Assembly: GCA_027493775.1 (NCBI GenBank)
Contig: JAOSKE010000001.1
Span: 741,651 to 805,650, forward strand
From: Kiritimatiellia bacterium
GTDB lineage: Bacteria > Verrucomicrobiota > Kiritimatiellia > CAIVKH01
Direction: 5' to 3'
Length of the DNA stretch: 64,000 nucleotides
This document shows positions 26,667-63,462 of the stretch, in pieces. The position numbers and the translations under genes were made by a program. How positions within the stretch are numbered: position 1 is the first letter of the stretch; each line of letters opens with the position of its first letter. The notes under the pieces are model-generated. The model had not been told where the DNA came from, searched no databases, and saw only the letters and a program-made list of their open reading frames with translations.

Positions 26667-26713
26667 TTCGATACGCTATCTGATAGACTAGCTATTAGCA
26701 AGAGGAAATTATC

Positions 26714-28899: not shown

Positions 28900-28925
28900 G
28901 AATGTCGGTTCTGCTGAAAAACCCC

Positions 28926-29129: not shown

Positions 29130-29176
29130 TTCGATACGCTATCTGATAGACTAGCTATTAGCAAGAGGAAATTATC

Positions 29177-35108: not shown

Positions 35109-35141
35109 GAGTTATTTTTCGGGTCTATTGGGGGTCTATTC

Positions 35142-47200: not shown

Positions 47201-50200
47201 AAGATTAATTCTGTTCCGTCATCGATTCCATCGCTGTCCGTATCAAAAACCAGCGGACTGGTTCCGTATATAAAAAGCTCGTCGTAGTCTGAAATCCCGT
47301 CTCCATCCGTATCTGTCAGACGGGGGTCAGTACCATGAACATTGATTTCATCCCAATCAGATAAACCGTCTCCGTCAGAGTCTTGAACATTCGGATTCGT
47401 GCCCAGTTCGTATTCCTGAAGATTGGACAACCCATCGCCATCCGCATCTCCGAGGGCGTCGTACATCGTGGCCACGTCGTTGCTGGAGAGAGCGGAGGTG
47501 TAGAGACGAACGTCGTCGAGCTGGCCTTTCCAAAAATAGCTGTCGCCCGGATCGTTGGCCCAACCAATGCGCAGTTCTGGTTCCATCGCGGGTGAAAAAC
47601 TTCCGCCGTTGGAGGCGACTTCCACTCCGTCGCGATAGAGACGGGTGGTCGAACCGTCGCGGGTCAGGGTGATTTGCGTCCACTTTCCGGCAATCGGGGA
47701 TTGGTGAATCGGGAAGGAGCTTCCACCGGCACAATTAGCAAGAAAACCGCCATAGCCATTGTTGAAGTTGTCCCAACCGAGCCAGAAACCTTTGTACAGG
47801 TAGCCGCAAAGAATGAAGTCGGCGATGATGGAGGGGTAATGCGAAGTGAAGGTTCCGTCGAGATTTACCCAGGCGCTGGCCGTAAATGTCGAACCCGTTA
47901 TCATGGCCACGGGCTGCAAGACTCTTACGTAATCGTCCGTGCCGTCGAACGACAAGGCGCCGCCCAGCATCCCGGAGGTCCAGGCGTTGGTCGGCATGTT
48001 GACCAATTGCCCGTTATAGCCGCTGCCCGCCGAGTTCAATGCGTTTGTCCCTTCCGTTTCATCGAATTTCCACCAGCCCTCGCCCTCCGCGGGCACACGC
48101 GAGGTCGGATTGAATCCATGCAGCATCTCCCACCAATCCGGCATTCCGTCCGCGTCGGAGTCGGGATCGATGAGCACAAGGTTTGCGTTCGTTGTGCTTT
48201 GCGCCAGCAAAATAGGGTTGTTGCTATACGCTCCCCACGCCTCGGCGTTGTCTTTCGACGCATTCGTGTTCGAATCCCGATATGCCTTCAACCGGTAGCT
48301 GGTCTGATTGGGAATATTGCTGATCGTGTATGGGCCGGGACCGGGGATGGTTGTCGTGAAGAGGGAGAGGTTCGTTCCGGAACCTGTCGCATACAGGCTC
48401 GCTACTTCGTCGCCATCGAGGGTACGCGCGTAGATTTTCACCTCGTCAATGCGCCCCTTCCAGTAGCGATTGGGAGCCGTTGAGTATCCGTTTCCGATGG
48501 CCACGTTGTCCATGGATGGGTTGAGGCCCACCGTTCCACCCTGTCCCTGATGGGAGGAGTGAAACTTGTACGTCCCGTTGTAGTACCCCCACGCATTGCT
48601 CCGATTCCACGTCAGGACGATGTGTTGCCAGCTTGCCGTTGGCATGCTGGCGGTGTACCAACACTGGCCGGTCAGACCCAGGCCGCCCCCGATAAATTCC
48701 CCCGTGCTGTAGGCTTCAAACCGAATGCAGTCGTCCCATCCGGCATAGTCTGTGGTGAACGGGTTTCGCCAGTTTTCCACTTCATCGGGGTTAACCCAGT
48801 AGGAAATGGTTCCTTCGGGCAGTACCCCCATGGGGCCAACAAGGATGTGATCGTTGGTGCCGTCATACCAATAAGCGCCGCCGCGATAGCCATTTGTGAC
48901 ATAAACAGCGCCGTTAACGATTCCAGTATAAAGCGGTGAGATCAGGTTTGAAACGCGACTCGTGTTCGGAATGTCGAAATCGTAGTGAAGCAGAAGCCCG
49001 GCTTCGATTTCGGCGCTCACAATGATCGGCCCCGTTTGTCGCCCGCTATACGTGATCACGCCGGCAAGGTTGACGGGATAAGAATCGGGCTGAGTCGGAT
49101 CGGTGCCTGCCTGGAGTTCCAACCAGTCAGCAGCGCCATCGCCGTCGCTATCGGGATCATACAGATCAATATCCACGCCGACCTTGTCAGCGCCCAGGAG
49201 AAAGCCGTTGCCATCATAAAACCCGACGGGCTCAAAATAATCTCGCATGCCATTTCCGTTGCTGTCCAGCCAGGCCATTACCCAGTAGTTGCTCAGAGTC
49301 GGCACGTGCGCGAATGAATAGGCGCCTGTGGTTGATTGGGAGGTGGTGCGCGTGTATTCGTCCGTGAAGCTGCTGCGGTAAATCCCCGCAATTTCCGCAT
49401 CGGTCAAGGTGGCGCGATAAAGCTGCACTTCGTCCATGAGGCCCCTAAAGGTCCAACCAGCTCCAGGGGACAGGTCGCCCAGGGCAGCGGTTACGTTATT
49501 GGATCGAATGGGCTGCGTGGCGAACACCGCGCTGGTGGCCACGAGACTGCCGTTCAGATAGAGCTTCGTTTGGACGCCGTTATAGGTTGCGAAGAGGTGC
49601 TGCCAGACGCCGTTGGTGATAATTGAGTCCTTAATGGCATCGCGAACACCATTTTGGTCAGCCGGCAGTATGCGCGTTTCAACACTCGATCCGTTGTTAG
49701 CCAAAATCATGTAGAGAGAGTCATCCCCAAAATAGGTCTTGCCCAATATGCCACCGAGCCAGATGCCAGGCTCGGCCTGAATCCATGCGCCCCAACTCAG
49801 ATTGTTGATGCCGACGGCCTGATATAGTTTTCCGAGTGTGATGGTGTCATTCCCGTCGAACGAATAGGCGCCGCCATGCTTGCCATTCGTTGTCCAGGTC
49901 GCCCCATTGACGGTCAGCGGAGTCTGCCAGGCGCTGTTGTCATACGTCGGTCTTGTGGCATCAAAACTCAATGATAACGCCGGTTGGTTTGTGATTACGG
50001 GATAAGCGGTGAGCTGAATGTGCAAGGCGCCCGTCTGTGATCCCGTGTAGCCGATTCGGCCGCTGAGCGTTGCTGGGAATGAGGCAGGGTTCAGTGGGTC
50101 GGCGCCATAAAATATTTCGAAAAAGTCCGTAGCGCCATCCCCGTCGCTATCAGCGGACTGAGGGTCAGTGCCCAATGCGTATTCTTGAGCATCGCTCAAT

Positions 50201-50403
50201 CCGTCGCCATCCGTATCTGTCACGAAAAGATCGGAATAATCAATCCCTGCATCAAAAATTCCGTTCCCGTTGCTGTCCTCTATAAAGTCAGCCAGCCCAT
50301 CGCCATCCGCGTCATTCGTCGTGCCGTAATGGAAGCCGATATCCCCAATGGAATTGGTCTCGCGCAACCCGCTCGCATCCGTAGTGTAGTGGTACATTCC
50401 CAC
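44275..50403 (-). CDS. Giant (>2042 aa) extracellular protein with repeated LamG-like (concanavalin-A-like lectin) domains and thrombospondin type-3-like Ca-binding repeats. The 5' end is truncated or disrupted by the ISL3 insertion.
   Basis: Multiple LamG-type jelly-roll units (…GGAYSFDGNDTITLG…WQHLFATYNGVQTKLYLNGSLVA…, …WQHIVLTWNRSNAWGYYNGTY…, …WTQITLTRDGSTTRLYRDGVEV…). TSP3 repeats (DTDGDGLSD, DSDGDGATD, DPDSDGDGAADW, DADGDGLSNLQE, DSDGDGLSDWDE, DTDGDGISDYDE, DTDADGLPDNWE, DSDGDGLSNLEE, DSDGDGLDD). The listed start is a GTG. The frame stays open upstream to about 50520 (…ANYLHPGSPAVNAGGTNADAVGMYHY…), where the ISL3 begins. Confidence 0.7.
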   Translation of the reverse strand: MGMYHYTTDASGLRETNSIGDIGFHYGTTNDADGDGLADFIEDSNGNGIFDAGIDYSDLFVTDTDGDGLSDAQEYALGTDPQSADSDGDGATDFFEIFYGADPLNPASFPATLSGRIGYTGSQTGALHIQLTAYPVITNQPALSLSFDATRPTYDNSAWQTPLTVNGATWTTNGKHGGAYSFDGNDTITLGKLYQAVGINNLSWGAWIQAEPGIWLGGILGKTYFGDDSLYMILANNGSSVETRILPADQNGVRDAIKDSIITNGVWQHLFATYNGVQTKLYLNGSLVATSAVFATQPIRSNNVTAALGDLSPGAGWTFRGLMDEVQLYRATLTDAEIAGIYRSSFTDEYTRTTSQSTTGAYSFAHVPTLSNYWVMAWLDSNGNGMRDYFEPVGFYDGNGFLLGADKVGVDIDLYDPDSDGDGAADWLELQAGTDPTQPDSYPVNLAGVITYSGRQTGPIIVSAEIEAGLLLHYDFDIPNTSRVSNLISPLYTGIVNGAVYVTNGYRGGAYWYDGTNDHILVGPMGVLPEGTISYWVNPDEVENWRNPFTTDYAGWDDCIRFEAYSTGEFIGGGLGLTGQCWYTASMPTASWQHIVLTWNRSNAWGYYNGTYKFHSSHQGQGGTVGLNPSMDNVAIGNGYSTAPNRYWKGRIDEVKIYARTLDGDEVASLYATGSGTNLSLFTTTIPGPGPYTISNIPNQTSYRLKAYRDSNTNASKDNAEAWGAYSNNPILLAQSTTNANLVLIDPDSDADGMPDWWEMLHGFNPTSRVPAEGEGWWKFDETEGTNALNSAGSGYNGQLVNMPTNAWTSGMLGGALSFDGTDDYVRVLQPVAMITGSTFTASAWVNLDGTFTSHYPSIIADFILCGYLYKGFWLGWDNFNNGYGGFLANCAGGSSFPIHQSPIAGKWTQITLTRDGSTTRLYRDGVEVASNGGSFSPAMEPELRIGWANDPGDSYFWKGQLDDVRLYTSALSSNDVATMYDALGDADGDGLSNLQEYELGTNPNVQDSDGDGLSDWDEINVHGTDPRLTDTDGDGISDYDELFIYGTSPLVFDTDSDGIDDGTELILGRNPTNTIAITGINSNWVYHSRSSDSIATWEPVPQNWQRFLMVDYDSKTNTAFLVLPPKLGLRDGSTTQLFLRFSWTTNGSNWASPEYAGTFYSNVVIASANPFHGMPTMGQVTLPVFKFSWPMPSAVESNYVQAYYSILLRVLTNAQQESYLWVIDKPQELGNGYGYNNYIVYPQAVGPQFFNADYRLDPDKTRFRNGGFETGTPTSHTNMPNWGGFGLDGGVSTSIVHSGIRSFVARDLDGAYQRIVVHPGEELVVGGWLYTPSVTNGIDTNALSGDRYAVIDLEYYDSTDGHKTRVDTARMTAEHAKDTWLYYSITSLVPSRAGFAHISLRTVAPTVNLVPPGHVYFDDISVQVSKDTDHDGMPDRWEVLWPAILSTNAPEDAVLDPDGDTLSNLDEYRIGTNPQSADTDADGLPDNWEYINGLNPNDPSDALLDSDGDGLSNLEEYQHGTNPFSQDSDGDGLDDAMEVYDFGSNPLQADYTNYVTVSEMPGTATVSRLGPWTEDGDYLCSVGLRGAVRYNLTIPTGDIYRIEVEGGDCESWKTLNSYELKAKVGGAYLGRQILFAETNGSGRAGFFTPWMTAGVYSLTLEWDNASDARRLSIHTIRLIQLDGADTDEDGQKDWVENRLARLSGLDTNSVSSAISPACVEGPDPFVGLISADGGVTVQSGIDGRWYANVPLNLTNATACRFEFQHSGLISTCLVTWSATDVLTNRATLSIRLNDALKLSAFPVGATSGTHSITITGGSNYTGLAAGAAIAHTFASTGSYLVSGAYYPAAGPTQYGAITVLVYSANFDESPACWHRVPRSWTSPGLSTNVLLESGNNLIIEEDAYATPRTFRLTALTPDEHGIVARLGSQGPIIASTKARAFRFGADSDTGFTRLGACSADYYLYENPFVLSPLLDDLSIQGKVIIGGVMYEDGGITNQWLPSQFDETGVLNVRFIKYQPGAFCNIIDVYQGTNFIGRHGGP

Positions 50404-50510: not shown

Positions 50511-52085
50511 ACCCCCGGGATTTTTCGCTTTGAGGCTACCCCGCAGGCGGGTAGGACAGGCGCCACGGCGGTCTGTGGCCGCCGTGGCGGCCTGCGGGTT
50601 TAGCCCCTGAGTCGGCGCTCGGGTTGCATCCCTGCAGTGCCCTATCCTCCGCTCAGGCCGCCCGGAATGTACCGCAGGGGCGTCGGATGGGACAAGTCTA
50701 TGCAGATGAACGAGCTGTTTCGGGTCGCGCTGGGGTTGGATGCCCCGTGGCAGGTCACCAAGGTCGAGTTTTCCGAATCCGACGGAAAACTCCAACTGTG
50801 GCTGGATTTCCCGGCCGGCAGCACGTTCCCGTGTCCGGTTTGCGCCAAGTCCGGCTGTGGCGCGTACGATACCGAGGAGCGAACTTGGCGGCACCTGAAC
50901 TTCTTCCAGCACCAGACGTTGCTCCACGCCCGCCAACCCCGCATCCAGTGTCCGGAACACGGCGTCAAGACCGTGGAGGTGCCTTGGGCGCGTCCCGGAA
51001 GCGGCTTCACGCTGCTGATGGAGGCGTTCATTCTCCTGCTGGTGCAAGGCGGGATGACCGCGGCTCAGGTCGGCCGCCTGATCGGTGAGCACGACACGCG
51101 GATCTGGCGAGTTCTCCAGCACTATGTCCAAGACGGACGTCGCCGGGCCGATTTCTCGGATGTGAGCTTGGTGGGGATGGACGAGACGTCGCGGGCGCGG
51201 GGGCACTCCTACATCACTCTGTTCATGGACTTGATGCCGGGCCATCGGCGCGTGCTCTTTGTCTGCCCGGAGCGCGATGCCCAGACGGTCGGCTTCTTTC
51301 GGGAAGACTTCGTGCAGCATGGGGGTGATCCCGACGCCATCCGCCGGGTCTGCATGGACATGTCGCCGGCCTTTATGAAGGGAGCGGCGGAGCATCTGCC
51401 GCACGCCCAGATCACATTCGACCCCTTCCACGTTGCCAAGCTCGCTGGCGAGGCAGTCGATGCCGTGCGACGGGAGGAACAGAAACGACGCCCGGAGCTC
51501 AAGGGGACGCGCTATCTCTGGCTCAAGAACGAGTGGAATCATACCGAGAAACAGGCCGAGCAGTGGGCGGCCATCAAAGGTTGCCGTCTCGAAACCGGCC
51601 GCGCCTGGTTGCTCAAGTCCGCGCTACAGGATGTGTTCCTGCCCGAGAACCGGGTCGATGGCCCAGCGCTTCTGACCAAGTGGTGTGCGTGGGCACAGCG
51701 TAGTCGGCTGGTCCCCATGCTCGAACTGGCCCGCACGCTCCGGCGGCACTGGACAGGCGTCGTCAACTGGTTCGACTCCCAGATCAGCAACGGCGTTCTG
51801 GAGGCCATCAACGGGTTGGTCCAAGCCGCCAAACGCCGCGCCCGCGGCTACCGCAACGTCAACCACCTCATCACCATGATCTACCTGCTGCTGGGCAAAC
51901 TCGACTTCCACTTGCCCACACTGTCACCGGCGGTTACCCACACCAAATAGCGGAGAGGCAACATTTAAGACCGTGCCCCACCGTGGTAAGGCGCGTGGCA
52001 AGCGACCTCAGGTGATCTTAACTTAGCGCCATTCAGGGCTGACCCCTTTTGGCTTGGCGAGGTCGTTTTTCGAAAAGATTTTCCA
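50511..52085 (+). mobile_element. ISL3-family insertion sequence (boundaries approximate) inserted in the 5' part of the giant LamG gene.
   Basis: The transposase has ISL3 hallmarks. The left region contains a GC hairpin GCCACGGCGGTCTGTGGCCGCCGTGGC. I could not define inverted repeats cleanly. Confidence 0.5.
50700..51950 (+). CDS. ISL3-family transposase.
   Basis: N-terminal zinc ribbon (CPVCAKSGC…CPEHG), then VGMDETSRARGH, DPFHVAK and ISNGVLEAINGLVQAAKRRARGYRN. Start placed at MQMNELF rather than the upstream-extended 50637. Confidence 0.85.
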   Translation: MQMNELFRVALGLDAPWQVTKVEFSESDGKLQLWLDFPAGSTFPCPVCAKSGCGAYDTEERTWRHLNFFQHQTLLHARQPRIQCPEHGVKTVEVPWARPGSGFTLLMEAFILLLVQGGMTAAQVGRLIGEHDTRIWRVLQHYVQDGRRRADFSDVSLVGMDETSRARGHSYITLFMDLMPGHRRVLFVCPERDAQTVGFFREDFVQHGGDPDAIRRVCMDMSPAFMKGAAEHLPHAQITFDPFHVAKLAGEAVDAVRREEQKRRPELKGTRYLWLKNEWNHTEKQAEQWAAIKGCRLETGRAWLLKSALQDVFLPENRVDGPALLTKWCAWAQRSRLVPMLELARTLRRHWTGVVNWFDSQISNGVLEAINGLVQAAKRRARGYRNVNHLITMIYLLLGKLDFHLPTLSPAVTHTK

Positions 52086-52124
52086 AATATTTTTGAGCAG
52101 GGGTTTTTCAGCAGAACCAAATGT

Positions 52125-52382: not shown

Positions 52383-54075
52383 CTCCCACTAGCCCGGATT
52401 ATTCACGAAAAAACATGAAATACCGTTAAAATAATATTGGAAAACCTTTGTAACGTGCTATTGTTTAGATTGTTACAAAAACCATAACACAAGGTTTTCC
52501 AATGCCTGATACTTGCACAGACTGTTTTCTTTTTCCAGAACTTTTTCACAAGCCTCTTCACGTCAAATTCTCCGACCAGCGCCTCTCCAGTGATGGCGGC
52601 CTTTTGCTCCTCAAGGCGCGTGACCGGAAGATGAATCTTTGTCCGCGTTTGGCCGATGCCATCCTGGATCGCCGAGACGCTGCAAAGGTCGAGCACTCGC
52701 TGCTCAGCCAACTCCAGCAACGCATCTTTGCTCTGGCCGCAGGCTATGCAGATACCAACCAAGCCGCCGCCCTGGCCAATGACCCGATGTTCAAGCTCGC
52801 CTGCGGACGCTCTCCTTGACGATTCGGCTCTCGCCAGTCAACCCACGCTCTCGCGCTTTGAAAATACCGCCAGCGCCTCCGATTTATATCGGATGAGTTC
52901 TGCGTTCATTGATGCCTTGCTCGCGTTGCTGCAAAAGCGTCACCGCGCTCCGCGGCGAATATGGATGGATGTAGATCCCACCTGCACTCCCACCTACGGC
53001 GCACAGCAACTGACCCTCTTCAATGGATACTATGATACGTGGTGCTATCTGCCCTTGGTCTTCACCATTTCATTCGACGCTGATCCTCGCAAATATCCGC
53101 TCGTACTGCTCTTGCGCCCAGGCAATGCGGACGCCATGCAGGGTGTTTTGCCCGTTCTTCGCCGCTTGATCCCTCGCCTGAAGACGCTCTGGCGCAAAAG
53201 CCATCTCTGGCTGCGCGCGGACAGCGCGTTTGCTCGATCCGACTTGCTCGACTGGCTTGACCAGCAGCGTATCGGCTACGATATAGGAGTCGCCTCCAAT
53301 GGCGTGTTGGCGCGTGAAATGAAAGAAGCGCTGGAGGTGGTGCGCGAGCTGGCGACACGCGACCAGGAGACGGTCACCTTCTACCTCGACACTTTATATC
53401 GCGCGAAGAGGTGGAGCCGCCCACGGCGGGTACTCTGTAAAGTTGAGGTGGTTCATGCTCTTGAGAAGGCGCCACGGGACAATGTTCGCTATCTGGTCAC
53501 GACGGGTACGAGCAGTCCGAAGCACGGTTTTGGACGGTACTACGGACATTCGGACATGGAGAATAGTATCAAGGAACTTAAGCACGATGCGGCCTTGGGT
53601 CGCTTTTCTTGCTCTCGGGCCAGCGCCAACCAGTTTCGAGCGATTCTTTCGTTGGTTGCGCTGACGCTTGTTCAGGGCTTGGCCTCCTCGTGGAAGGGCG
53701 GCGAGCTTCGTTCGCAAATGGATACGCTGCGCACTTGTTTGCTGAAGGTTGCGGTTCGGGTCAAGGAGACGGCCCGGCGAATCGTGATTGAGCTGGCCGA
53801 GGATTATCCTTGGAAACATCGCTTTCGGCGCTGCGCCCTGGGACTTGGTGCGGTTCCGATTTAGCCGCAACGACGCTCTGTAAATCCAGCCCTGCTCCCC
53901 GGCTCATCCCCGGATGGCCCCGCTATGCCAATGAGCGAAAAAAATCGCGAGAGAAGCCATCTCCGACAGCGCTCTGCAGAGCTTCAACACCGAGAACTCA
54001 TCAAATCCACGAAATTCACCCTCGCGATCTCGGAATTTATGCGTGTCCCACGGGGCTCATGAATAATCCGGGCTA
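52383..54075 (+). mobile_element. IS4-superfamily (IS4/IS701-like) insertion sequence with roughly 17-bp terminal inverted repeats CCCGGATTATTCA(C/T)GA.
   Basis: Left end CCCGGATTATTCACGAAAAAACATG. Right end …CATGAATAATCCGGGC. A deletion derivative sits at 24903-25396 and a solo end at 36812-36866. Confidence 0.65.
52502..53864 (+). CDS. DDE transposase of the IS4-superfamily element, in two frames (52502..52819 and 52656..53864).
   Basis: The N-terminal frame ends …DPMFKLACGRSP*. The second frame continues …LLDDSALASQPTLSRFENTASAS… through the DDE region (…WMDVDPTCTPTYG…, …LRADSAFARSDLLDWL…, …YGHSDMENSIKELKHD…). The break lies near 52810-52820. Confidence 0.65.
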
Positions 54076-54338
54076 GCAGCGGACGCAAGATTTGTCTCCA
54101 ATATGCGATAACCCGGCCTAAACGACACTTCTACCCCATACTTCGACCTCATCCACAATGTCAATTCGTCGTCACTCTGAGGAAGCCTTTTTTCAACGGC
54201 AACGTACTCGTTCAATGCGAGCGTGAAGTGTCGATCACGCATAGCAACAAACAACCATTTGTACAATGATATTACTAGCATCGCGGCCAACGCAAGGATA
54301 GCCAGCCACACGACGACGCGCTTTCTAATTTTTCTCAT
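54057..54338 (-). CDS. Small membrane-anchored protein. Immunity candidate for the CT4 orphan toxin.
   Basis: 93 aa with an N-terminal TM (VVVWLAILALAAMLVISLYKWLFVA). It lies directly downstream of 54359..55000. AT-rich. Confidence 0.4.
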   Translation of the reverse strand: MRKIRKRVVVWLAILALAAMLVISLYKWLFVAMRDRHFTLALNEYVAVEKRLPQSDDELTLWMRSKYGVEVSFRPGYRILETNLASAASPDYS

Positions 54339-54358
54339 CTGGCATTGCTATAGGTGGA

Positions 54359-55000
54359 TTACGGCTGCGGAAGCAGGTTTTGGCATGCTGTTCTACAGTT
54401 GTGGCCGATCAGATTATACTCCGGCTGCATAGCCGTATATGCCTCGGCACGTATGTCGGCTGCTGTTGCCTCCTCGGGACTAACCGGATGAGCAACATAG
54501 TCATCACTGGGAAGCAACTGTTTGTCGAGTGGCAGAGGGGGGCCGTAAGTAGCCAGACCGGGAACCCAATCAAGCAGCGTCGAGAGTGTTAAGTCATTCG
54601 CTGGCCGGAAGTCGAATCTGCGATAGCCATCTGGCGTCGGAATTAGCAGATATGTGTGATTAATTCCTTCTGGATTCATTCCAGTGTAGACGGCATTGCC
54701 TTCTCCCAATCCCAACGAATCCACCCAATTGACCGGGTCGCCATGACAGTAGAGATAGAGGTTCGCTTGGCCACCTCCGAATAGGATGGGGTCTTTGGCT
54801 AGCCATCTTCCAGTCATCGGATCATAATCCCGATACCCGAACCACGTGAGACCCGTATCCGGGTCGTAGAGCCCCACCCGCAAACCCGAACGGCTGAAAG
54901 CCCGGATTTGTGTCCTGTAGGACGTTCCCCCATTCGTCGTAGTCCATCCGCTGCGCAACCGCGCCGGTCTGGGCATCCACAACCAGCCGCACGCTGCCAA
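54359..55000 (-). CDS. Orphan Rhs C-terminal fragment with a distinct CT4 toxin domain. One frame break.
   Basis: The core …[58 protein letters not shown] is followed by a roughly 120-aa CT ending …[20 protein letters not shown]. The upstream part ([47 protein letters not shown]) is in another frame (ORF 54822..55073), with an extra C in the run at 54872-54875. Confidence 0.6.
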
Positions 55001-55021
55001 GATGATCCGTAACGTCTATTC

Positions 55022-55446
55022 GGGTCGAGTCTAGACATTTTACAGTTAGCGTCTTCTCGCAATACAGATGCACGTATATTCCGGGACGAACAGGTCGCTG
55101 AGGCGGGCGAGTGAGGTCGGTTAATGCGGTGCTGTTGTAAGCGGTTGTTCGAGCAAATTGTCACAGGGGTTAGTGACGAGAACGAGGCGAGGGACTCAGA
55201 GAGGTAGTCGAAACCACAGCAGGAAAGTTCATTCGGTTGCATCGCATCTACCCTTCCACGATCTCGCGTCATAATTCAGCCCGCAAACGAACCACGCAGT
55301 TAATCATCAACCCTCCGCCGCCTTAGGTCAACACGTCTTTTGTCTTGGCCAAAATCACCGATCATGAGAATTGATCCCCACTCCCCCGTTTTGATTTTTG
55401 GACGCGAGAACACAAACCAAATGTCGAATGTCTAGACTTGACCCCA
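55022..55446. repeat. REP/BIME-like element, copy 2 (GGGTCGAGTCTAGACATT … AATGTCTAGACTTGACCCC).
   Basis: Termini at 55022-55039 and 55428-55446. The interior is about 90% identical to 35142-35566. Confidence 0.55.
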
Positions 55447-55469
55447 ACTGCTCTAACTGCTCCGGTGTC

Positions 55470-55877
55470 TTATTTAAAAGCGTTGTTCAAATATTTTATA
55501 CATACCTCAATTAGCTTTAGTCGCTCATCTTGCGCATCTACTAAACACGTGCTCAACTCTGCAGTGGCAGAGGTAGGCCACACCTTTAATACACCACGAA
55601 CATTCGGGTTCAAATAGACCTCAATACGACGCATCATGACATCACCGCTGATCCAAGTTCCAAATATAGAACACAAAAACCTAAACAGATAGCTGCCAGC
55701 GTATTCACGCAAATATGAACCGCGCATCTCTCTTACAAAATAACCGCGACCATACGCGAGCAGGGTTATCTGTTCTTGTGGTGTTGTCGCAGAATCAACG
55801 CCTACATCCTGCCATCCATGGCGCTTCTTAATAAATTTTATATTGCTAATCTCATTCACCCGGCTCACGCCCTTCAT
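55470..55877 (-). CDS. Immunity-protein candidate for CT3 (intact copy, 135 aa).
   Basis: [26 protein letters not shown]…[10 protein letters not shown]. It lies immediately downstream of the CT3-encoding Rhs fragment. Confidence 0.5.
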   Translation of the reverse strand: MKGVSRVNEISNIKFIKKRHGWQDVGVDSATTPQEQITLLAYGRGYFVREMRGSYLREYAGSYLFRFLCSIFGTWISGDVMMRRIEVYLNPNVRGVLKVWPTSATAELSTCLVDAQDERLKLIEVCIKYLNNAFK

Positions 55878-57862
55878 TTTTTGGGGTTAGTTCATTTTCA
55901 ATTGCCTCTCGTGCGGTCTGCTCTAGAAGTGCTTTAATCGGATGAGCCAACAGCGTCTTTAGATTAGGCCCATCATTAATAAAATCTGCAATACCCTCAG
56001 AAGCGGGCCCCTCGCCCAGAAGTGTGGTCACAATCTTCCTGATAAGCTCTTCGCTTGCCTGAATCGCTTGCCCGGGAACCTTCAGTAGTTCTTTCGCTTG
56101 TTCTGCGAGTTGGGAGGCGACGTTGTCGTAAGCATCTACAAGATGCTCCCAAACCGCACCTGCAAAATTATTAAGCGTATATTCTCCAGCTTTCCAAGCC
56201 GCATCGCGTGGGTTCTCTCCCAACCCAAGCGGGTCGATATAATTGACCGGATCCCCATGACAGTACAGATACAGATTTGCCTGTCCGCCCCGAAACAGTA
56301 TGGGGTCTTTGGCCAGCCATCTCCCAGTCATCGGATCATAATCCCTGTAGCCAAATCGGACCAAGCCCGTGCCAGGGTCATACATACCTCCCGCGAACCC
56401 AAATGGCTGAAATCCCGGATTTGTGTCCTCCAGAACATTGCCCCATTCGTCGTAGTCCATCCGCTGCGCAACGGCGCCGGTCTGGGCATCCACAACCAGC
56501 CGCACGCTGCCAAGATGATCTGTAATGATCCGATATGTCGTTCCCGACCGCACCATATAGTCCGGCACATTCACTCGCGTCGCGTACACGAACCGGGACT
56601 TCACGCTTCCATCCGCATTCAACTCCGCAATCGGCTTCAGGAAGTCCTGATAGACCAGCCGTTGCACGGTCGTGCCATTCACACTCTTGGCGATGCGCCG
56701 CCCCAGAGGGTCAACGCTGTACCGAATCGCAGAAACCGTGGAGCTGACGGCAAGCAGGCTGCCCCGAGCGTCATAGCGGTATGCGGTTCCGACTCCGCCA
56801 ACGCTCTTGTTCGTCAGCGTGCCACGGTCATCATGCTGGTAGGTCGTCGCCCCGTAGCTCAACAGGCGATCCTGCGCGTCGTAGTGACCCACAAGCGACG
56901 ACCCGCTCAGTATGGCATTTGTGCGGTTCCCATTTGCGTCGTATTGATATTTTGCGCGCAGCGAACCATTGGTATGCACCTCAATCAGCCGCCCCGCCGC
57001 ATCATAGGAATAGGTGTATAGGTTCGTCTGATTCTGAATGCGCTCCACCCGGCTGGTCATCCGCCACATTGCATCGTACCCATAATCGAATGACAGCAGA
57101 TTTGTTCCGCCAAAATCACTGGCGGATGCCTGTAGCTCCCCAAATTTGCTAATTTGTCGCATATCGCTCACATCGCCCAGAACCGTGTTCGTCACAAACC
57201 CACTTGCGGCATCCCGATTCAGCCGCAATTGACCGGCATTGGTCAACAATAGATCAAGATCATAGCCGTATCCAATACCATCACCATTGAGCGTAATCTG
57301 GCTCAAGCGGAGGTCCGGACTCCATGCATACCCTACCCGTCCCGTGACAGAGCCACCCCCAGGTCACGTTTGTCAGCAGGCTGCCATCCCAGTCTAAAGC
57401 CAGAGAGGACCCGCTTGTGGCAACGATGGAAATCGGGTGCCCGTTTGCGTAGGCGACCGCAATCCGGTTCTCCGGCCACCGGACCTGACTCGCCTGCCCC
57501 GCCGCATTGTACTGGTTGGTGATGGTCGCCCCGCCCGGCAGCCGTATGCTCGTCACCTGGCGGCGCGCATTCCACGTGAGGAGAAGATTCGTGTCCACAC
57601 CAGCCAAGCCGGGGGCCGAATAGCGACCCAGAAGACCAACGTTGTTGTAGTCCATCTGATGTTCAGCCTTATCGGGCGGCCGTACTCCGCCCAGGTTGGA
57701 AGACTTGTCGTACCGCAGTCCGATGGTCTTCGCATCCGGTTGCAGCAGATTCGTGACCCGACCGGCGGGATCGGAATCCAGCCGGTACGACTGCAGCAAA
57801 CTGTTGGTGAGCGCGCCCCAAAATCCATTCGTTGTATAACCGAGTCCAAAAGCACGACGCAC
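55852..57862 (-). CDS. Rhs fragment (about 670 aa of YD repeats and core) ending in the CT3 toxin. One frame break at a C5 run.
   Basis: ORFs 57281..57862 and 55852..57306 abut. The paralogue 60837..63230 reads straight through the same region with cccc (62233-62236) where this copy has ccccc (57356-57360). Core …[35 protein letters not shown]…, then CT3 identical to 35973..36692. Confidence 0.7.
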
Positions 57863-57876
57863 AGCTCCAGTGTGTT

Positions 57877-58066
57877 TTGGGGTCGAGTCTAGACATTGTA
57901 CAGTTCGCCGCTTGTCTTTGAGATGGCCTCTCGATTGCGACCGCGCGACGTCACATGGTGCCGGACGCCTTCAATGTCAATTCTCAATGGCCTGCTCATA
58001 CCGATCTTGTATTCATTCTCGACACGTCGGCGCAAGCCACAATGTCGAATGTCTAGACTTGACCCT
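57877..58066. repeat. REP/BIME-like element, copy 3 (190 bp), whose interior is an inverted 5' fragment of the RAYT gene seen at 63440-63520.
   Basis: Termini GGGGTCGAGTCTAGACATT (57877-57895) and AATGTCTAGACTTGACCC (58047-58065). The reverse complement of the interior (…caagatcggtatgagcaggccattgagaattgacattgaaggcgtccggcaccatgtgacgtcgcgcggtcgcaatcgagaggccatc…) matches 63405-63500. Confidence 0.5.
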
Positions 58067-58119
58067 AACTACTCTCAACATCACTGCTGTCCAAAACGCG
58101 CGAAAGTCTGACGAAAGAG

Positions 58120-59475
58120 GGGCCCTATTCCCTGAAAAAAGCATCGTTGGGTCGTTTGCGCAAAACCGATCCCCCCCCTTTTATGAAGGACATGGGTTCT
58201 GCTGTCCAAGATCGAGTTCCCAGAACTCAGCTTGAACGAAAGGGGGCGGAAACGGCGGTGTTTCATAGGGACGCTCGATCCAGACCCACAAGTCCCGGTA
58301 GGTGAAAAGGTTCAGCCGCAGCAGCGCCACGAGGTTGGAGAGGTGCCAGCCGCATTTGGATTTGAACTGCAGGTACTTGATCAGGAGTATGGCGATCAAT
58401 GCTGTCCAAATCTGGATATGCACCGCGTTGGCGGAGGTGCCGACGAAGGTCTTGATGCGGAGATTCTGCTTGAGGTCCTTGAAGAACAGTTCGATCTGCC
58501 AGCGGGCTTTGTAGATCTGGGCGATGGTGGATGCGGCCAGATGCAGATTGTTGGTGAGAATCACCAGTTCCTCCTGTTTGTCTTCCCGCCAGACCGTGAT
58601 CCGGCGGTACTGCCTTTTGATCCGCCGTCCAGCCTGAAAGACGTGAAACTCCCCGATCTCATCGGCGCGGACGGGTGAGTCGGCAGGCACCTCGCGCGAC
58701 TCGGTGCGATACCAGTCGGCGTGCTTCTTCATCCGTGTCACGAAGAACACGCCCTCGGCGCTCCAGCGCTCAAAAAGGTGGTAATCCACATAGGCGCGGT
58801 CCATGACCACGATACTGCCCTTGGGCAACGGTAAACCCCGAGCAGTCTTTAACTCGTGCTCACGACCCTCGGTGATATGCGCAAAGACCGGAAGACAGCC
58901 GTCATGGTCCAAAAGAAGGTGCATCTTTACCGCCCCTTTGGTCTGGCGGTATTTCGCCCAGTCGAATGCGGAAGCACACAGGTCAATCACCGTGGCATCG
59001 AGGCTCATCAGTTTGTTTTTGAAGCGGAATGGCTTGCCTGGGGCGACCGCCCGACAGGTTCCAAGCAGATCGTAGAAGAGCCGTTGAAAAAGCTGCCAGG
59101 GGCGATGTTGGTTCGCGTAGGCCAGCGTCGAGCGCGCCGGACCGACACTCATCCCCAGATGGGATAGTCGGCCTTCACAACATTGCAGACCCTGCGTGAT
59201 CTCCCGGAGACTGCGACTGTTGGTGAGCTGGCAGAAGAGCATGGCCACAAACTGATCCCAGCAACTGAAGCCCTTCGATCGGTACTCGGCATTCACCTCG
59301 CGCACGTGGTGCGAAAAGTCATTCCGGTTGAAAAGGGAAAGCAGTTGGCTGAACAGACTGGCCTTGTGTGCGCTCATCTTGCGGGGTCTCCTGGTCGGGC
59401 TTGTTGGATATTTTCACCTTCAGCCTACCTCCAGACCCCGTTTCTAAAAACTTGTTTTGGACACTACTGTCTCAA
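58120..59475 (-). mobile_element. IS4-family insertion sequence (boundaries approximate).
   Basis: Contains the transposase 58181..59377. The 5' flank sequence is shared with the truncated copy at 52125-52345. Confidence 0.55.
58181..59377 (-). CDS. IS4-family DDE transposase (398 aa).
   Basis: …VVMDRAYVDYHLFERW…, …LVILTNNLHLAASTIAQIYKARWQIELFFKDLKQNL… matches the IS4 YREK signature. Confidence 0.85.
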   Translation of the reverse strand: MSAHKASLFSQLLSLFNRNDFSHHVREVNAEYRSKGFSCWDQFVAMLFCQLTNSRSLREITQGLQCCEGRLSHLGMSVGPARSTLAYANQHRPWQLFQRLFYDLLGTCRAVAPGKPFRFKNKLMSLDATVIDLCASAFDWAKYRQTKGAVKMHLLLDHDGCLPVFAHITEGREHELKTARGLPLPKGSIVVMDRAYVDYHLFERWSAEGVFFVTRMKKHADWYRTESREVPADSPVRADEIGEFHVFQAGRRIKRQYRRITVWREDKQEELVILTNNLHLAASTIAQIYKARWQIELFFKDLKQNLRIKTFVGTSANAVHIQIWTALIAILLIKYLQFKSKCGWHLSNLVALLRLNLFTYRDLWVWIERPYETPPFPPPFVQAEFWELDLGQQNPCPS

Positions 59476-59656
59476 CATGACGGGCCACTATGGCCGCGCC
59501 TTCAATTGCTTGATGGGCATTTTAATCACGCTTCGGCGTGAATGCCGCATCTACGGGCTCTAACCGCCTTTCATGCTATCTGACCCCTTTAGTCTCTGAC
59601 CCCTTTAGTCTCCGGGAGAAACGGGATACAAGAACCGATCCCATTCGTCCGGCACG

Positions 59657-60298
59657 CTAAAACGAGGATTCATTACGTCTCGCTTCGATCTCCGTAATCA
59701 TGCCATTTACAAGCCGCCGAATATCACCGCTTTCGTCGTATTTGATATTTTCAAGATATTGACTGCGACTTTCAGAATTGGTGCCCACAAAGTAGAGCGC
59801 GACGCCCAAACAGGCTTTAATGCGACCATCGCTATTTCTATATCGTTCTTCCAACTCAGCGATATTATTCGTGGGCCGGGTTAGCGCTAACGCAATAGAG
59901 AGTTCACGCTGTACCTGCCAATATTCTTCCGTTTGGACAAGCGCCAATAGGTCTGGCTCTACCGTTCCGTCTCGGAACCTACCCAGTGATTGCACGGCGA
60001 AAAAACGAATGCGCCAAGAAGGGTTCGCCAGTTGCGATACTAAAATCGGAACTGCATCCGCCTCTGTGCGCCGCCCCAAATACTGCATCGCCATGATCGA
60101 GACCGTCTCATTTGTATCGCGAACGAGATCAACAATATCGTCAGTGTGGATGATGGAGGAATGTAAATTTGTGAGAACCGAAATATCATCAGTCATCAAT
60201 AGTTCACGTAATTCATCTTTAGATATACGCTTAGAACAAGCCGTGCCTATAAATATCGCGCAAATTACTGCGCCGAGAAGCATTCCTTTTTGATTCAT
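59657..60298 (-). CDS. HEAT-repeat lipoprotein. Possible immunity or accessory protein of the CT5 module.
   Basis: Lipobox MNQKGMLLGAVICAIFIGTAC|S. PBS-lyase/HEAT-like repeats (…DAVPILVSQLANPSWRIRFFAVQSLGRFRDG…). AT-rich. Confidence 0.45.
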   Translation of the reverse strand: MNQKGMLLGAVICAIFIGTACSKRISKDELRELLMTDDISVLTNLHSSIIHTDDIVDLVRDTNETVSIMAMQYLGRRTEADAVPILVSQLANPSWRIRFFAVQSLGRFRDGTVEPDLLALVQTEEYWQVQRELSIALALTRPTNNIAELEERYRNSDGRIKACLGVALYFVGTNSESRSQYLENIKYDESGDIRRLVNGMITEIEARRNESSF

Positions 60299-60571
60299 CT
60301 ATCGGGTACGCCTTCTTGGCAGGTCTCTATATGGATTTCCCGGTGGAGGCCTATTGCCGAAATCAACACCCGAATCAAGCTCCTCAAACATATCGTAACT
60401 AATTGCATTATCGTTTAATAGCTCTACGTATGTCTCTGTAAATGTCGTAATCCCTTCAGTTACGGCGATTGGGCCACTCGGTGATGGATTAATCCAGAAC
60501 AGATTGACCGCGTCTGCACCAGTTGGCATAACCAATGCTGTTGGTTGGCGCGTGGCTTCATTGCTACTCAT
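60299..60571 (-). CDS. Hypothetical small protein (90 aa).
   Basis: ORF only, between the membrane protein and the lipoprotein, in the same orientation with start/stop overlaps. Confidence 0.3.
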   Translation of the reverse strand: MSSNEATRQPTALVMPTGADAVNLFWINPSPSGPIAVTEGITTFTETYVELLNDNAISYDMFEELDSGVDFGNRPPPGNPYRDLPRRRTR

Positions 60572-60789
60572 AAAGCACGATCACCGCTTACCTTGTTCTT
60601 GGTCGTGACCAACGTATTTATCAAAGCGACAATATCTTGTTGCAGACTTAGCCTAATGAATTGACACGCGCAGACCTGAAGACCAGCAGCAGACAAGATC
60701 ATAAAGACAAACCCCTCCACCACATTATGCCCGCTAACACTCACAACAAGAGCGGCCAAGAACATAAAACTAAATATAATCGCAGCCAA
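60568..60789 (-). CDS. Small two-TM membrane protein. Immunity candidate for the glycine-zipper CT5 toxin.
   Basis: 73 aa, MAAIIFSFMFLAALVVSVSG … FVFMILSAAGLQVCACQFI. It is the first gene downstream of the Rhs fragment. Confidence 0.35.
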   Translation of the reverse strand: MAAIIFSFMFLAALVVSVSGHNVVEGFVFMILSAAGLQVCACQFIRLSLQQDIVALINTLVTTKNKVSGDRAL

Positions 60790-60836
60790 TGTGGCGGTGA
60801 TATATTTTTTCTAATCGCTCTATTATCTATCATTAA

Positions 60837-63230
60837 TCACTTGAGGCGAGGAGTTGATGTTACCAAGGGATATGGCTCGAAGTTGATTAAATCATTTACT
60901 TCAATCAAATGATCCGCAACTGGTCCGTCACGCCAGTTGTCTACGACATCATCGATCTGATCAGGAACAGTTAACAGCTCCCAGATACCAAATATGACGA
61001 GTACAGCACCACCACCGATTACCAAAGGAAGACTTCCGATGGCCGCACCGCCACCAGCTACAATGCCTCCAAGCGCAGAAACAATTCCCTGCCATAGCAG
61101 CCCATTGGGATCAATATAGTTAATTGGATCCCCGTGGCAATAGAGGTACAGGTTGGCTTGGCCTCCTTCAAACAAGATAGGGTCTTTGGCCAGCCACCTC
61201 CCAGTCATCGGAGCATAATCGCGGTATCCGAACCGCGTCAGACCCGTGTCTGGGTCGTATAAACCTCCCGCAAACCCGAACGGCTGGAATCCCGGATTGG
61301 TGTCCTGCAACACGTTCCCCCATTCGTCGTAGTCCATCTGCTGCGCAACCGCGCCGGTCTGGGCATCCACAACCAGCCGCACGCTGCCAAGATGATCTGT
61401 AATGATCCGATATGTCGTTCCAGAACGCACCATATAATCCGGTACATTCACTCGCGTAGCGTACACGAACCGGGACTTCACGCTTCCATCCGCATTCAAC
61501 TCCGCAATCGGCTTCAGGAAGTCCTGATAGACCAGCCGTTGCACGGTCGTGCCATTCACACTCTTGGCGATGCGCCGCCCCAGAGGGTCAACACTGTACC
61601 GAATCACAGAAACCGTGGAGCTGACGGCAAGCAGGCTGCCCCGAGCGTCATAGCGGTATGCGGTTCCGACTCCGCCAACGCTCTTGTTCGTCAGCGTGCC
61701 ACGGTCGTCATACTGATATGTCGTCGCCCCGTAGCCCAACAGGCGATCCTGCGCGTCGTAGTGGCCCACAAGCGACGACCCGCTCAGTATGGCATTTGTG
61801 CGATTCCCATTTGCGTCGTATTGATATTTCGCGCGCAGCGAACCATTGGTATGCACCTCAATCAGCCGCCCCGCCGCATCATAGGAATAGATGTATAGGT
61901 TCGTCTGATTCTGAATGCGCTCCACCCGGCTGGTCATCCGCCACATTGCATCGTACCCATAATCGAATGACAGCAGATTGGTTCCGCCAAAATCACTGGC
62001 GGATGCCTGTAGCTCCCCAAACTTGCTAATTTGTCGCATATCGCTCACTTCGCCCAGCACCGTGTTCGTCACAAACCCACTTGCCGCATCCCGATTCAGC
62101 CGCAATTGACCGGCATTGGTCAACAATAAATCAAAATCATAGCCGTATCCAATGCCATCACCATTGAGCGTAATCCGGCTCAAGCGGAGGTCCGGACTCC
62201 ATGTATAGCCTACCCGTCCCGTGACAGAGCCACCCCAGGTCACATTTGTCAGCAGGCTGCCATCCCAGCCTAAAGCCAGAGAGGGCCCGCTTGTGGCAAC
62301 GATGGAAATCGGGTGCCCGTTTGCGTAGGCGACCGCAATCCGGTTCTCCGGCCACCGGACCTGACTCACCTGCCCCGCTGCATTGTACTGGTTGGTGATG
62401 GTCGCCCCGCCCGGCAGCCGTATGCTCGTCACCTGGCGGCGCGCATTCCACGTGAGGAGAAGATTCGTGTCCACCCCAGCCCAGCAGGGTGCCGAATAGC
62501 GACCCAGAAGACCAACGTTGTTGTAGTCCATCTGATGTTCAGCCTTATCGGGCGGCGTCACCCCGCTCAGATTGGAGGACTTGTCGTACCGCAGTCCGAT
62601 GGTCTTCGCATCCGGTTGCAGCAGATTCGTGACCCGACCGGCGGGATCGGAATCCAGCCGGTACGACTGCAGCAAACTGTTGGTGAGCGCGCCCCAAAAT
62701 CCATTCGTTGTATAACCGAATCCAAAAGCACGACGCACACCTCCAGTGCCGATCGCGAACTGCTGCAACCGACCGTGAACATCATATGCAACATCGATGG
62801 GATACAACCCCGGTAGCTCTATCCGCTCCGCGCGCCCGTTTGCATTATAGATTACCCTGCGGGTTCTGCCCTCGGGACTCGTCAGCGACGCCATTCGATT
62901 CGACGCCTGATACGACGCTACATACGCTGGTCGGTCATTAATGCTGAAGACATTCGTGAAGGAAACGAGGCTTAACACGTCACCGGGATCCGACAACGAG
63001 GCGGCTCGGGATCTATTGGGGTCGAGTCTAGACATTTTATATTTAGCGCCTTCTCGCAATACAGATAAACGCATATTCGGGACGAATAGGTAGCTTAGGG
63101 GGTTGTTCGAGCAAGTTGTCACTGGGTTTGGTGACGAGAATAAGGCGATGGACTCAGAGTAGGAGTCGAAGCCACAGCAAGAAAGCTCATTCTGTTGCAA
63201 CATGTCTAGCTTCCCACGATCTTGCGCCAT
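60837..63230 (-). CDS. Rhs fragment (about 700 aa of YD repeats and core) with a glycine-zipper, membrane-type CT5 toxin domain. The ORF initiates inside the REP-like element and reads across its terminus.
   Basis: The N-terminal roughly 60 aa (MAQDRGKLDMLQQNELSCCGFDS…[12 protein letters not shown]) are encoded by element 63017-63393; MSRLDP is the translated palindrome AATGTCTAGACTCGACCCC. The Rhs body is about 97% identical to 55852..57862. The C-terminus …[71 protein letters not shown]… is a GxxxG-rich hydrophobic tip. Confidence 0.7.
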   Translation of the reverse strand: MAQDRGKLDMLQQNELSCCGFDSYSESIALFSSPNPVTTCSNNPLSYLFVPNMRLSVLREGAKYKMSRLDPNRSRAASLSDPGDVLSLVSFTNVFSINDRPAYVASYQASNRMASLTSPEGRTRRVIYNANGRAERIELPGLYPIDVAYDVHGRLQQFAIGTGGVRRAFGFGYTTNGFWGALTNSLLQSYRLDSDPAGRVTNLLQPDAKTIGLRYDKSSNLSGVTPPDKAEHQMDYNNVGLLGRYSAPCWAGVDTNLLLTWNARRQVTSIRLPGGATITNQYNAAGQVSQVRWPENRIAVAYANGHPISIVATSGPSLALGWDGSLLTNVTWGGSVTGRVGYTWSPDLRLSRITLNGDGIGYGYDFDLLLTNAGQLRLNRDAASGFVTNTVLGEVSDMRQISKFGELQASASDFGGTNLLSFDYGYDAMWRMTSRVERIQNQTNLYIYSYDAAGRLIEVHTNGSLRAKYQYDANGNRTNAILSGSSLVGHYDAQDRLLGYGATTYQYDDRGTLTNKSVGGVGTAYRYDARGSLLAVSSTVSVIRYSVDPLGRRIAKSVNGTTVQRLVYQDFLKPIAELNADGSVKSRFVYATRVNVPDYMVRSGTTYRIITDHLGSVRLVVDAQTGAVAQQMDYDEWGNVLQDTNPGFQPFGFAGGLYDPDTGLTRFGYRDYAPMTGRWLAKDPILFEGGQANLYLYCHGDPINYIDPNGLLWQGIVSALGGIVAGGGAAIGSLPLVIGGGAVLVIFGIWELLTVPDQIDDVVDNWRDGPVADHLIEVNDLINFEPYPLVTSTPRLK

Positions 63231-63393
63231 AATTCAGCCCGCAAACAAAACACGCGGTTAATCATCAGCCCTCCGCCGCTCGCTGTCAACACAGACCTAA
63301 ACCACCGATAACAAGAATTCATCCCCATTCCCCCGTTTTGATTTTTGGACGTGAGAGCACAGGCGCAAATGTCGAATGTCTAGACGTGACCCC
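63017..63393. repeat. REP/BIME-like element, copy 4, directly adjacent to the RAYT gene.
   Basis: Termini GGGGTCGAGTCTAGACATT (63017-63035) and AATGTCTAGACGTGACCCC (63375-63393). The interior is conserved with copies 1 and 2. Confidence 0.55.
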
Positions 63394-63462
63394 ATCTGCT
63401 CTGAAAACAAGATCGGCATGAGCAGACCATTGAGAATCGACATTGAAGGTGGGTGGATCATG

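Follow-up and report, generated by a model that had tools for sequence, protein, structure and literature searches.

We analysed 64,000 nucleotides of a Kiritimatiellae metagenome-assembled genome (MAG; GenBank assembly GCA_027493775.1, contig JAOSKE010000001.1, positions 741,651 to 805,650), referred to below as the window, and propose that an array of rhs gene fragments found there between 54057 and 63230 (array II) is the remains of a second rhs locus that has been decapitated. The locus would have encoded a YD-shell polymorphic toxin and now carries an array of displaced C-terminal (CT) toxin tips. We assign this reading a probability of about 0.7. Exact-sequence look-ups identified the proteins of the window as accessions MCZ7591290-7591308, on a contig of 1.4 Mb. 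All genes discussed from array II, and from a second array (array I) that follows the main toxin operon of the window, are on the minus strand. Loci of this kind are well known and the accepted model of their behavior is unchanged; the toxin tips match nothing described. The value of array II lies in being a clean example, with tip exchange in YD-shell toxins seen at single-nucleotide resolution outside the well-studied Proteobacteria, and in being a source of putative toxin domains.

Two long Rhs/YD fragments lie in the array. Fragment B (61098..63015) is a 5'-truncated shell of about 636 codons that ends in DPNGL (Pfam TEN_YD-shell, 1.6e-25; RHS_repeat, 1.8e-17), and fragment A (56221..57866) is a 5'-truncated shell of 548 codons that ends in DPLGL (TEN_YD-shell, 4e-27). 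Comparison of the window with itself aligned 56231-57872 to 61108-62748 at 94.1% identity over 1642 nt. After removal of an extra G at 57360, the fragments share 544 codons at 95.4% amino-acid identity, less than the roughly 670 amino acids at about 97% given by the original prediction, which had been made from the open reading frames (ORFs) of the window. The extra G lies in a run of five and splits fragment A, earlier taken to be the single ORF 55852..57862, into ORFs 57281..57862 and 55852..57306. Fragment B had been given as 60837..63230, a 797-amino-acid (aa) ORF, but the first ~72 codons of this ORF, starting at ATG 63230, are read-through of a miniature inverted-repeat transposable element (MITE) and hold no Rhs sequence. 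The general description of two long minus-strand fragments with unrelated tips is upheld, as the tips diverge after DPLGL and DPNGL. So is the view that the bodies are not a simple assembly duplicate, given that 122 of 1681 aligned positions differ and that the flanks are different.

None of the fragments retains the part of an Rhs protein needed for delivery. Fragment B aligns to the shell of the main rhs gene of the window only from residue 297 of the latter (residue 75 of the 797-aa ORF), at 51% protein identity, and has no signal peptide or plug, with the initial third of the shell also missing. The start of fragment A lies ~90 codons beyond that of B, and a third, short fragment that bears the tip CT4 starts ~100 codons before its core end. 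A, B and the CT4 fragment have no N-terminal part for delivery, which would be a signal peptide or PAAR together with a plug, and the array as it stands cannot export a toxin. The identity of 51% to the main rhs gene indicates that B belongs to a separate rhs lineage. Among genomes, the body of B has its nearest relative in a Verrucomicrobia MAG (53% identity). Array II, earlier named an orphan array, is not one of the main rhs gene: it is placed upstream of that operon, is 51% identical to it, and its three fragments are headless.

The similarity of A and B is unevenly distributed. Sliding DNA identity is 93-100% from 57866 to ~56475 and 76-78% over the last ~245 nt before the tip, such that the region of high identity (~97%) ends near 56475 in A and near 61352 in B. 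Amino-acid identity falls from 96.3% in the first 463 codons to 90% in the last 81. By the Nei-Gojobori method, the first 463 codons have a synonymous divergence (dS) of 0.082 and a non-synonymous divergence (dN) of 0.017, a ratio of 0.21, and the last 81 codons have a saturated dS of 2.7 and a dN of 0.064. Saturated dS together with low DNA identity at the core end indicates that the last ~80 codons of the core travel with the tip; in B, this cassette-linked segment is 61098..61352 (~81 codons, ~77% DNA identity to A). From these comparisons, the crossover lies in or upstream of the core end that is "hyperconserved" at the protein level, and this end of the "conserved" core is part of the incoming, exchangeable cassette. 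The signature of purifying selection in the body suggests that most of the divergence between A and B accumulated when both were still working genes, perhaps in separate genomes.

Every core end carries a DPxG(L/T) motif, and the autoproteolysis motif PxxxxDPxGL is present at the core ends of A, B (GDPINYIDPNGL) and the CT4 fragment, with unrelated sequence directly after it. The proposed divergence at DPxGL holds for the proteins, but the breakpoint in the DNA is ~245 nt further upstream. Similarly, the designation of A and B as a textbook case of C-terminal displacement is correct in that tips were exchanged on a conserved body, although the exchange point is not the DPxGL codon and the clearest case, that of the tip CT6, had been missed.

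One displacement event is caught in the window, and its before-state is preserved in another metagenome. Logan contig L001 (SRR25626493) encodes a HEAT-repeat protein directly after an Rhs core end (…HGDSINQKDIIGL, DIIGL) and a tip of 95 aa, CT6. The exact HEAT-repeat protein is found in array II (59657..60298; 213 aa, lipoprotein-like signal, Pfam HEAT_2 at 4e-14; its protein cluster has 14 members), where it is preceded by a 3' remnant of CT6 of 64 codons (60299..60493). A 90-aa ORF (60299..60571) fuses this remnant in frame to 26 N-terminal codons that have no counterpart in L001. Window positions 60493-59640 are 99.9% identical to L001, and upstream of 60493 we find tip CT5, a 73-aa ORF and a core end that matches the one in L001 at only 89.6% identity. 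The CT6 stump and the intact copy in L001 are direct evidence that an incumbent tip was displaced, and from the alignment the CT5 cassette appears to have replaced the core end and the 5' third of the older tip. The earlier account, in which CT5 is followed by a 73-aa protein, a 90-aa ORF and a HEAT-repeat lipoprotein, is right about the presence of all three, but the 90-aa ORF is the CT6 remnant. The HEAT-repeat protein, which directly follows intact CT6 in L001, is a candidate immunity protein for CT6 and does not belong to a CT5 operon. On the same contig, outside the window and ~220 protein accessions away, the HEAT-repeat protein is encoded once more (MCZ7591085.1, P0005; 99% identical), which hints at a third rhs locus, perhaps with an intact CT6-bearing gene of the A/B lineage.

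The tip of fragment A, CT3 (55852..56220), is an acidic protein segment of 122 aa plus stop that is predicted to be all-helical, and is followed by a putative immunity ORF of 135 aa (55470..55877). A second CT3 cassette (35450..36660), comprising the right part of a MITE, the immunity ORF, the tip and ~100 core codons, is located at the distal end of array I. Only two differences were found over ~1050 nt (99.8% identity) between 35450-36500 and 55330-56380, which bears out the earlier statement that CT3 and its downstream ORF exist in two copies. This near-identical stretch takes in the inner ~120 nt of the MITE, the immunity ORF, the tip and part of the core, and the left, outer MITE parts beside the two copies are only 80-84% identical. 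At its 5' end, the CT3 orphan of array I switches to main-lineage sequence ~20 nt past the end of its homology to A, indicating that the CT3 cassette has been on both rhs lineages. We conclude from these junctions that the cassette has already moved between the two lineages of the window, which are only 51% identical, and the transfer may be explained most simply by gene conversion with the MITE and the core as homology arms.

The CT3 cassette also occurs on contigs from other samples, at 99-99.9% identity and still linked to a MITE. The 135-aa product is present on 8 independent Logan contigs from several samples and represents the authentic length of the immunity ORF; the 173-aa copy in array I (35477..35998) reads into the MITE after a change from T4 to T3 at 35597. 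We did not detect matches to CT3 in Pfam, NCBIfam or PDB sequences, and a single-sequence AlphaFold2 (AF2) model (pLDDT 53) was not good enough to support a fold search. On Logan contig L034 (positions 1-495; SRR16642463), a very short CT3 orphan, with its core beginning at WLAKDPILF, lies ~250 nt downstream from the C-terminal end of a tyrosine recombinase whose C-terminal sequence includes TTAIYTHV. The arrangement recalls recombinase-associated immunity islands.

Tip CT5, carried by fragment B (60837..61097), comprises 86 aa plus stop, namely a hydrophobic segment of 40 residues with a glycine zipper and then an acidic tail. Mean Kyte-Doolittle hydropathy within residues 6-46 is up to 2.2. 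The zipper S8xxxG12xxxG16 falls within the overlapping stretches SALGGIVAG and GIVAGGGAA (tip residues 8-20), and GxxxG motifs occur at 12 and 18. The 73-aa ORF (60568..60789), 47 nt after CT5, has a 45-residue hydrophobic N-terminal half that is long enough for two transmembrane (TM) segments by hydropathy, and may encode the CT5 immunity protein. Both features agree with the original prediction of a glycine-zipper membrane tip followed by a two-TM protein. Composition makes a membrane tip plausible, and by analogy with known toxins CT5 is most likely a membrane-inserting, depolarising tip that is neutralised by the 73-aa protein.

One analogy is Tse5/Tsi5 of Pseudomonas aeruginosa (PMC9637101, PMC10684867), where a hydrophobic, non-enzymatic tip on an Rhs shell is likewise followed by a small two-TM protein. 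CT5 differs from Tse5 in its shorter length of 86 aa, in its headless carrier and in having no link to a type VI secretion system (T6SS); no sequence similarity was detected between them. The glycine-zipper toxins TelE, EsxX and TspA of type VII secretion systems (T7SS) and CdzC/CdzD (PMC12744356, PMC5380434) share with CT5 a (G/A/S)xxxGxxxG motif in a C-terminal hydrophobic helix and a membrane-bound immunity protein, but they use a different scaffold (LXG/T7SS or type I secretion), have no homology to CT5 and provide no Pfam family match. We did not find homologues of CT5 in Pfam (E up to 10), NCBIfam (E up to 1), the JGI metagenomes or a plasmid tblastn search. No PDB sequence matched the tip below E = 0.5, and the Tse5 chain deposited as 8cp6_B (1121 residues), which matches fragment B, may not include the CT. 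The protein collection does not contain the exact 797-aa product, and a search of it with the CT5 tip also returned no protein match. The 73-aa ORF has no family match, and the exact 73-aa and 205-aa products are not on record.

The CT4-bearing core fragment (54707..55018) spans ~104 codons from VTDHLGSV to DSLGL. It contains an extra G in a G4 run near 54872, the removal of which restores a continuous frame of 218 aa. The CT4 tip itself (54359..54706; 115 aa plus stop) has a histidine at residue 17 and, near its C-terminus, the cysteine of a GHNC motif. A papain-like nature had been suggested for CT4 on account of this motif, but found no statistical support: the tip has no match in Pfam (E up to 10), NCBIfam, PDB sequences or the JGI metagenomes, and HMMER, run in full over 1.84 billion representative proteins, returned only CT4 itself and a repetitive 1566-aa protein, which we judged to be spurious. 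The single-sequence AF2 model (mean pLDDT 45), whose fold is unreliable, contains three strands, with His17 on the second, and a C-terminal helix that starts at the cysteine. Permuted papain-fold enzymes in which the histidine precedes the cysteine include the LRAT/H-Rev107 and PPPDE/DeSI families. CT4 resembles these in having its histidine on an early predicted strand and, ~85 residues later, a cysteine at a helix start in an xNCxxx-like context, but differs in that no profile, sequence or structure match was obtained at the thresholds tried. We can only guess that the order of the two residues in the model is compatible with a permuted papain-like fold.

Downstream of CT4 is a 93-aa ORF (54057..54338) with a single TM segment, a putative CT4 immunity gene. 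The single-TM protein reported earlier is present in this position, but the ORF is truncated: its last 5 codons and stop lie inside the inverted repeat (54057-54076) of an insertion sequence (IS), and its 3' end has therefore been lost. This IS element (52389..54076, plus strand), with a DDE_Tnp_1_4 transposase gene (52656..53864) and 20-nt terminal inverted repeats (TIRs), cuts off the downstream end of array II. An internal-deletion derivative of it, ~500 nt long and with both ends kept (97% and 84% identity), is found at 24902-25399.

Beyond the searches described above, the tips and immunity ORFs of the window have no meaningful match in Pfam, NCBIfam or PDB sequences, with the exception of the HEAT repeats. 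When all tips and immunity ORFs were compared by tblastn with 32 related rhs loci taken from GTDB genomes, no match was obtained, and the plasmid search gave none either. A word-indexed protein search with the CT3, CT4 and CT5 tips found none, a weak negative as it also missed the clusters of CT4 and CT3 themselves, although proteins with these tips (P0001, P0017) are cluster representatives in the collection searched. In view of this lack of detectable homologues, we infer the activities of the tips from their composition and position. Array II adds four tip/immunity pairs without current database relatives, one of them probably a membrane-depolarising glycine-zipper tip with a two-TM partner.

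The junctions of array II are occupied by transposable elements. The 20-mer ATGTCTAGACTCGACCCCAA, which occurs 12 times where 0.01 occurrences are expected, corresponds to the TIRs of IS1182-type elements. An IS1182-family element with a 550-aa transposase (NF033551, 1.6e-79) is complete at 26422-28571, and a second, tandem copy (~28885-31032) is 98% identical. Their TIRs are the same as those of four MITE-like elements. One of these (63016..63395, ~380 nt) lies directly upstream of B and holds ATG 63230, a short one of 192 nt (57877..58068) abuts the 5' end of A, another (55019..55447) separates the CT3 immunity ORF from the CT4 fragment, and the fourth (35139..35569) is at the CT3 copy of array I. 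The Rhs homology of B, A and the CT4 fragment begins in each case no more than about 5 nt from the left end of a MITE. No target-site duplications flank the MITE-linked units, and no structured RNA was recognised in MITEs or spacers by Rfam. A candidate small protein conserved among the MITEs was dropped, since the copy at 35 kb does not preserve its frame. The inner part of the 192-nt element (57921-58015) is 87% identical, in inverted orientation, to 63402-63495, just beyond the right end of the 63-kb MITE, and the element is thus not a simple deletion derivative of the 430-nt MITE. Between the HEAT gene and fragment A, the array is interrupted by an IS4-family transposase gene (58181..59377; DDE_Tnp_1 at 8e-30 and DUF4372, Pfam; named IS4 family transposase by NCBI), in an IS that extends over roughly 58.1-59.56 kb and for which we found no convincing inverted repeats at the ends.

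Given this anatomy, we suggest the following history for the locus, in which the order of events is the one we infer. Fragment B would be the former head gene, its first ~560 codons (signal peptide, plug and the initial third of the shell) having been lost at an IS1182-type MITE end. Downstream of B would then follow, in order, the CT6 stump with the HEAT gene, A with CT3 and its immunity ORF, and the short core with CT4 and its truncated immunity ORF. New cassettes, each composed of ~80 core codons, a tip and an immunity gene, may enter by homologous recombination in the conserved shell or core, with an illegitimate join on the downstream side and the previous tip pushed downstream. The presumably silent array would most likely serve as a store of tips for recombination onto an intact rhs gene, and its immunity genes may still protect against the toxins of neighbours.

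Several observations weigh against this reconstruction. The window holds no intact rhs gene of the A/B lineage, and re-arming by recombination is presumed. It ends at 64000, and the DNA upstream of the 63.4-kb MITE is not Rhs-like. Four single-base indels (in A, the CT4 fragment, the main rhs gene and the CT3 immunity ORF) are all in homopolymer runs, which, in a MAG with a 1.4-Mb contig, suggests long reads; sequencing errors may therefore account for some of the "pseudogene" features. A truncated protein could be expressed from B, in view of the in-frame ATG and a promoter-like site (63289-63261) inside the MITE. Finally, the tips and immunity ORFs have no detectable homologue, apart from the family match of the HEAT repeats.

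We considered whether the two bodies, or the two CT3 copies, could be strain variants of a single locus that were joined in tandem during assembly. The indels expected of uncorrected long reads, the origin of the contig from a MAG and the near identity of the CT3 copies would fit such an artefact, but it is very improbable in light of the divergence of A and B, which differ at 122 positions with a dN/dS of 0.21 and have different shell starts and tips. Moreover, unique DNA (the CT6 stump, the HEAT gene and the IS4 element) separates A from B, and the CT3 copies are flanked differently on both sides, with adjacent MITE parts of only 80-84% identity. It is also very unlikely that CT5 arose by chance as hydrophobic read-through beyond a broken core, with a spurious 73-aa ORF behind it, as might be supposed from the failure of every search to find a homologue of either and from the absence of the exact 797-aa product from the collection. 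CT5 starts exactly after an intact DPNGL, and we estimate a chance of ~0.01 that its 86 codons would stay open in DNA of 44% GC. Its size is comparable to that of the other six tips (95-126 aa), it is unlike any other part of the window in any frame, and the two-TM ORF 47 nt later gives it the layout of Tse5/Tsi5.

The remaining alternatives concern the MITEs. It is doubtful, and we give the idea little credence, that the headless fragments are active, with the MITEs providing a promoter (and for B a start codon) and the Rhs-CT/immunity pairs acting inside the cell as toxin-antitoxin-like modules or as expressed orphans. A promoter-like site (TTGACA/TTGACC-17-GATGAT) conserved in two MITE copies faces the fragments, ATG 63230 is in frame with B, and all four MITE-type copies have the same orientation to the genes downstream, including an intact 1143-aa gene that starts at 35108; expression of an orphan rhs has been reported for Salmonella (PMC7043789). 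However, promoter-like sites are not in excess (9, as compared with 8.2 in shuffled sequence), and A and the CT4 fragment are frameshifted. Moreover, the MITE copies do not share a conserved reading frame, and this frame does not match that of A or CT4, so that the in-frame fusion to B is probably due to chance. A somewhat different possibility, which we regard as unlikely, is that the MITEs are the vehicle, and that cassettes move as MITE-linked units, by a transposase in trans or by recombination between MITEs, and thereby build the array. Consistent with this, a MITE end is found at every fragment junction of array II, the duplicated CT3 stretch is bounded exactly by the outer MITE end at one edge and by a point within the core at the other, and contigs from other samples preserve the association of the CT3 immunity ORF with the MITE. 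On the other hand, no more than the inner ~120 nt of the MITE belongs to the near-identical tract, as would fit ordinary gene conversion with the MITE as a homology arm, the units lack target-site duplications, and array I has orphan junctions free of MITEs; all this comes from one window. It is distinctly unlikely that the MITEs are functional parts for diversification, that is, portable homology arms and possibly outward promoters that move cassettes between rhs loci and possibly drive headless fragments, with CT4 and CT5 as founders of new toxin families. If true, this would take place in a phylum (Kiritimatiellota) whose Sec-type YD-shell toxins have received no study.

A decapitated locus with displaced tips, the reading we prefer, can be placed beside several known systems. 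Jackson et al. 2009 (PMC2935791) described dissociated tips with partial cores of varied length, a low-GC trough, frameshifts and C-terminal displacement. Array II resembles such dissociated-tip arrays (PMC2935791; Poole et al. 2011, PMC3150448) in its direct partial cores with unrelated tips and small downstream ORFs, in its low-GC trough (44-47% GC over the tips vs ~57% over the bodies) and frameshifts, and in having one tip visibly displaced by a newer one. It is unlike them in that its head gene is itself truncated, with no complete head gene of that lineage upstream. The fragment cores are not near-identical to an intact upstream rhs gene; the only near-complete rhs gene is downstream and 51% identical. 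Array II differs further in the MITE or IS at every junction, in fragments of up to 636 codons, in its occurrence in Kiritimatiellota and in belonging to a Sec-type rather than a T6SS-type Rhs. The H-rpt (ISAs1-type) sequences in E. coli Rhs elements (mentioned in PMC3032704) provide another case of IS-related repeats among rhs tips, but in array II the repeats are short, non-autonomous and IS1182-ended, and are situated exactly at the 5' ends of the fragments.

The shell is of the teneurin type. Its best PDB match is the bacterial teneurin-like structure 9pt5_A, with E-values of 6e-72 for B and 5.5e-116 for the main gene, as compared with ~1e-25 for T6SS Rhs structures. This structure is of Bacillus inaquosorum BiTLP (9pt5/9ifo; PMC13018210), which shares with the main gene a Sec signal, a possible FN-plug-like region and DPxG cleavage motifs, and with the tips small (~15 kDa) polymorphic C-terminal domains (CTDs) that each have one immunity gene. 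The 92-aa CTD of BiTLP is hydrophobic and damages membranes when exported (PMC13018210); CT5 parallels it in composition and size but has no sequence similarity to it. The FN-plug domain (PF24329) reached 25.0 bits, short of the 27.8-bit cut-off, and did so only in the main gene (266-aa ORF); it is absent from A and B. No NHL domain was matched in the main gene and there is no room for one, as the plug ORF abuts the shell ORF and shell residue 57 already aligns to BiTLP residue 1266. With no room for NHL and the FN-plug below threshold, we do not call the main gene a teneurin-like protein (TLP) but classify it, by these profile and sequence matches, as a probable Sec-type YD-shell/Rhs toxin with a teneurin-type shell. 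The phylum is not listed in PMC13018210.

The main toxin operon, which is separated together with array I from array II by a cluster of IS elements, includes an ORF of 2042 aa (44275..50403) and two small ORFs. Its rhs gene consists of an N-terminal ORF of 266 aa (42831..43631), with a signal peptide and the FN-plug-like region, and a shell ORF of 1062 aa (39725..42913) that ends in tip CT1. The two are split at a run of nine A (42936-42944, minus strand), where the gain or loss of one A would fuse them; the split may reflect a sequencing error, a pseudogene or slip-strand switching. No T6SS components were found among ten larger ORFs tested in the first 26 kb, and no tyrosine recombinase gene is encoded within the window. 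Six core ends lie within 27 kb; in comparison, only four of the related loci that we fetched had more than one core-end match. Array I carries the CT2 and CT3 orphans. The ORF after CT2 (36906..37619) encodes a 237-aa homologue of CPBP/Rce1-like membrane proteases (PF02517, 2.9e-16), a family with members known as bacteriocin immunity proteins.

The region at 50.6-54.1 kb is a pile-up of IS remnants, including an ISL3 transposase gene (50637..51950). A solo IS1182-type end is found at 52121-52140, and between it and the next IS lies a 159-nt fragment of the IS4 5' end (52146-52304, 97% identical to 59302-59460). The window also encodes an intact secreted protein of 1143 aa (31677..35108) with bacterial TSP3 repeats and a lamin-tail domain. 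The 35139-35569 MITE ends 26-30 nt upstream of its start codon, such that the gene must be transcribed through or from the MITE. The C-terminal region of this protein has a caspase-like look (…YYSGHGGH…VLAGCSVLD…), as judged from these motifs.

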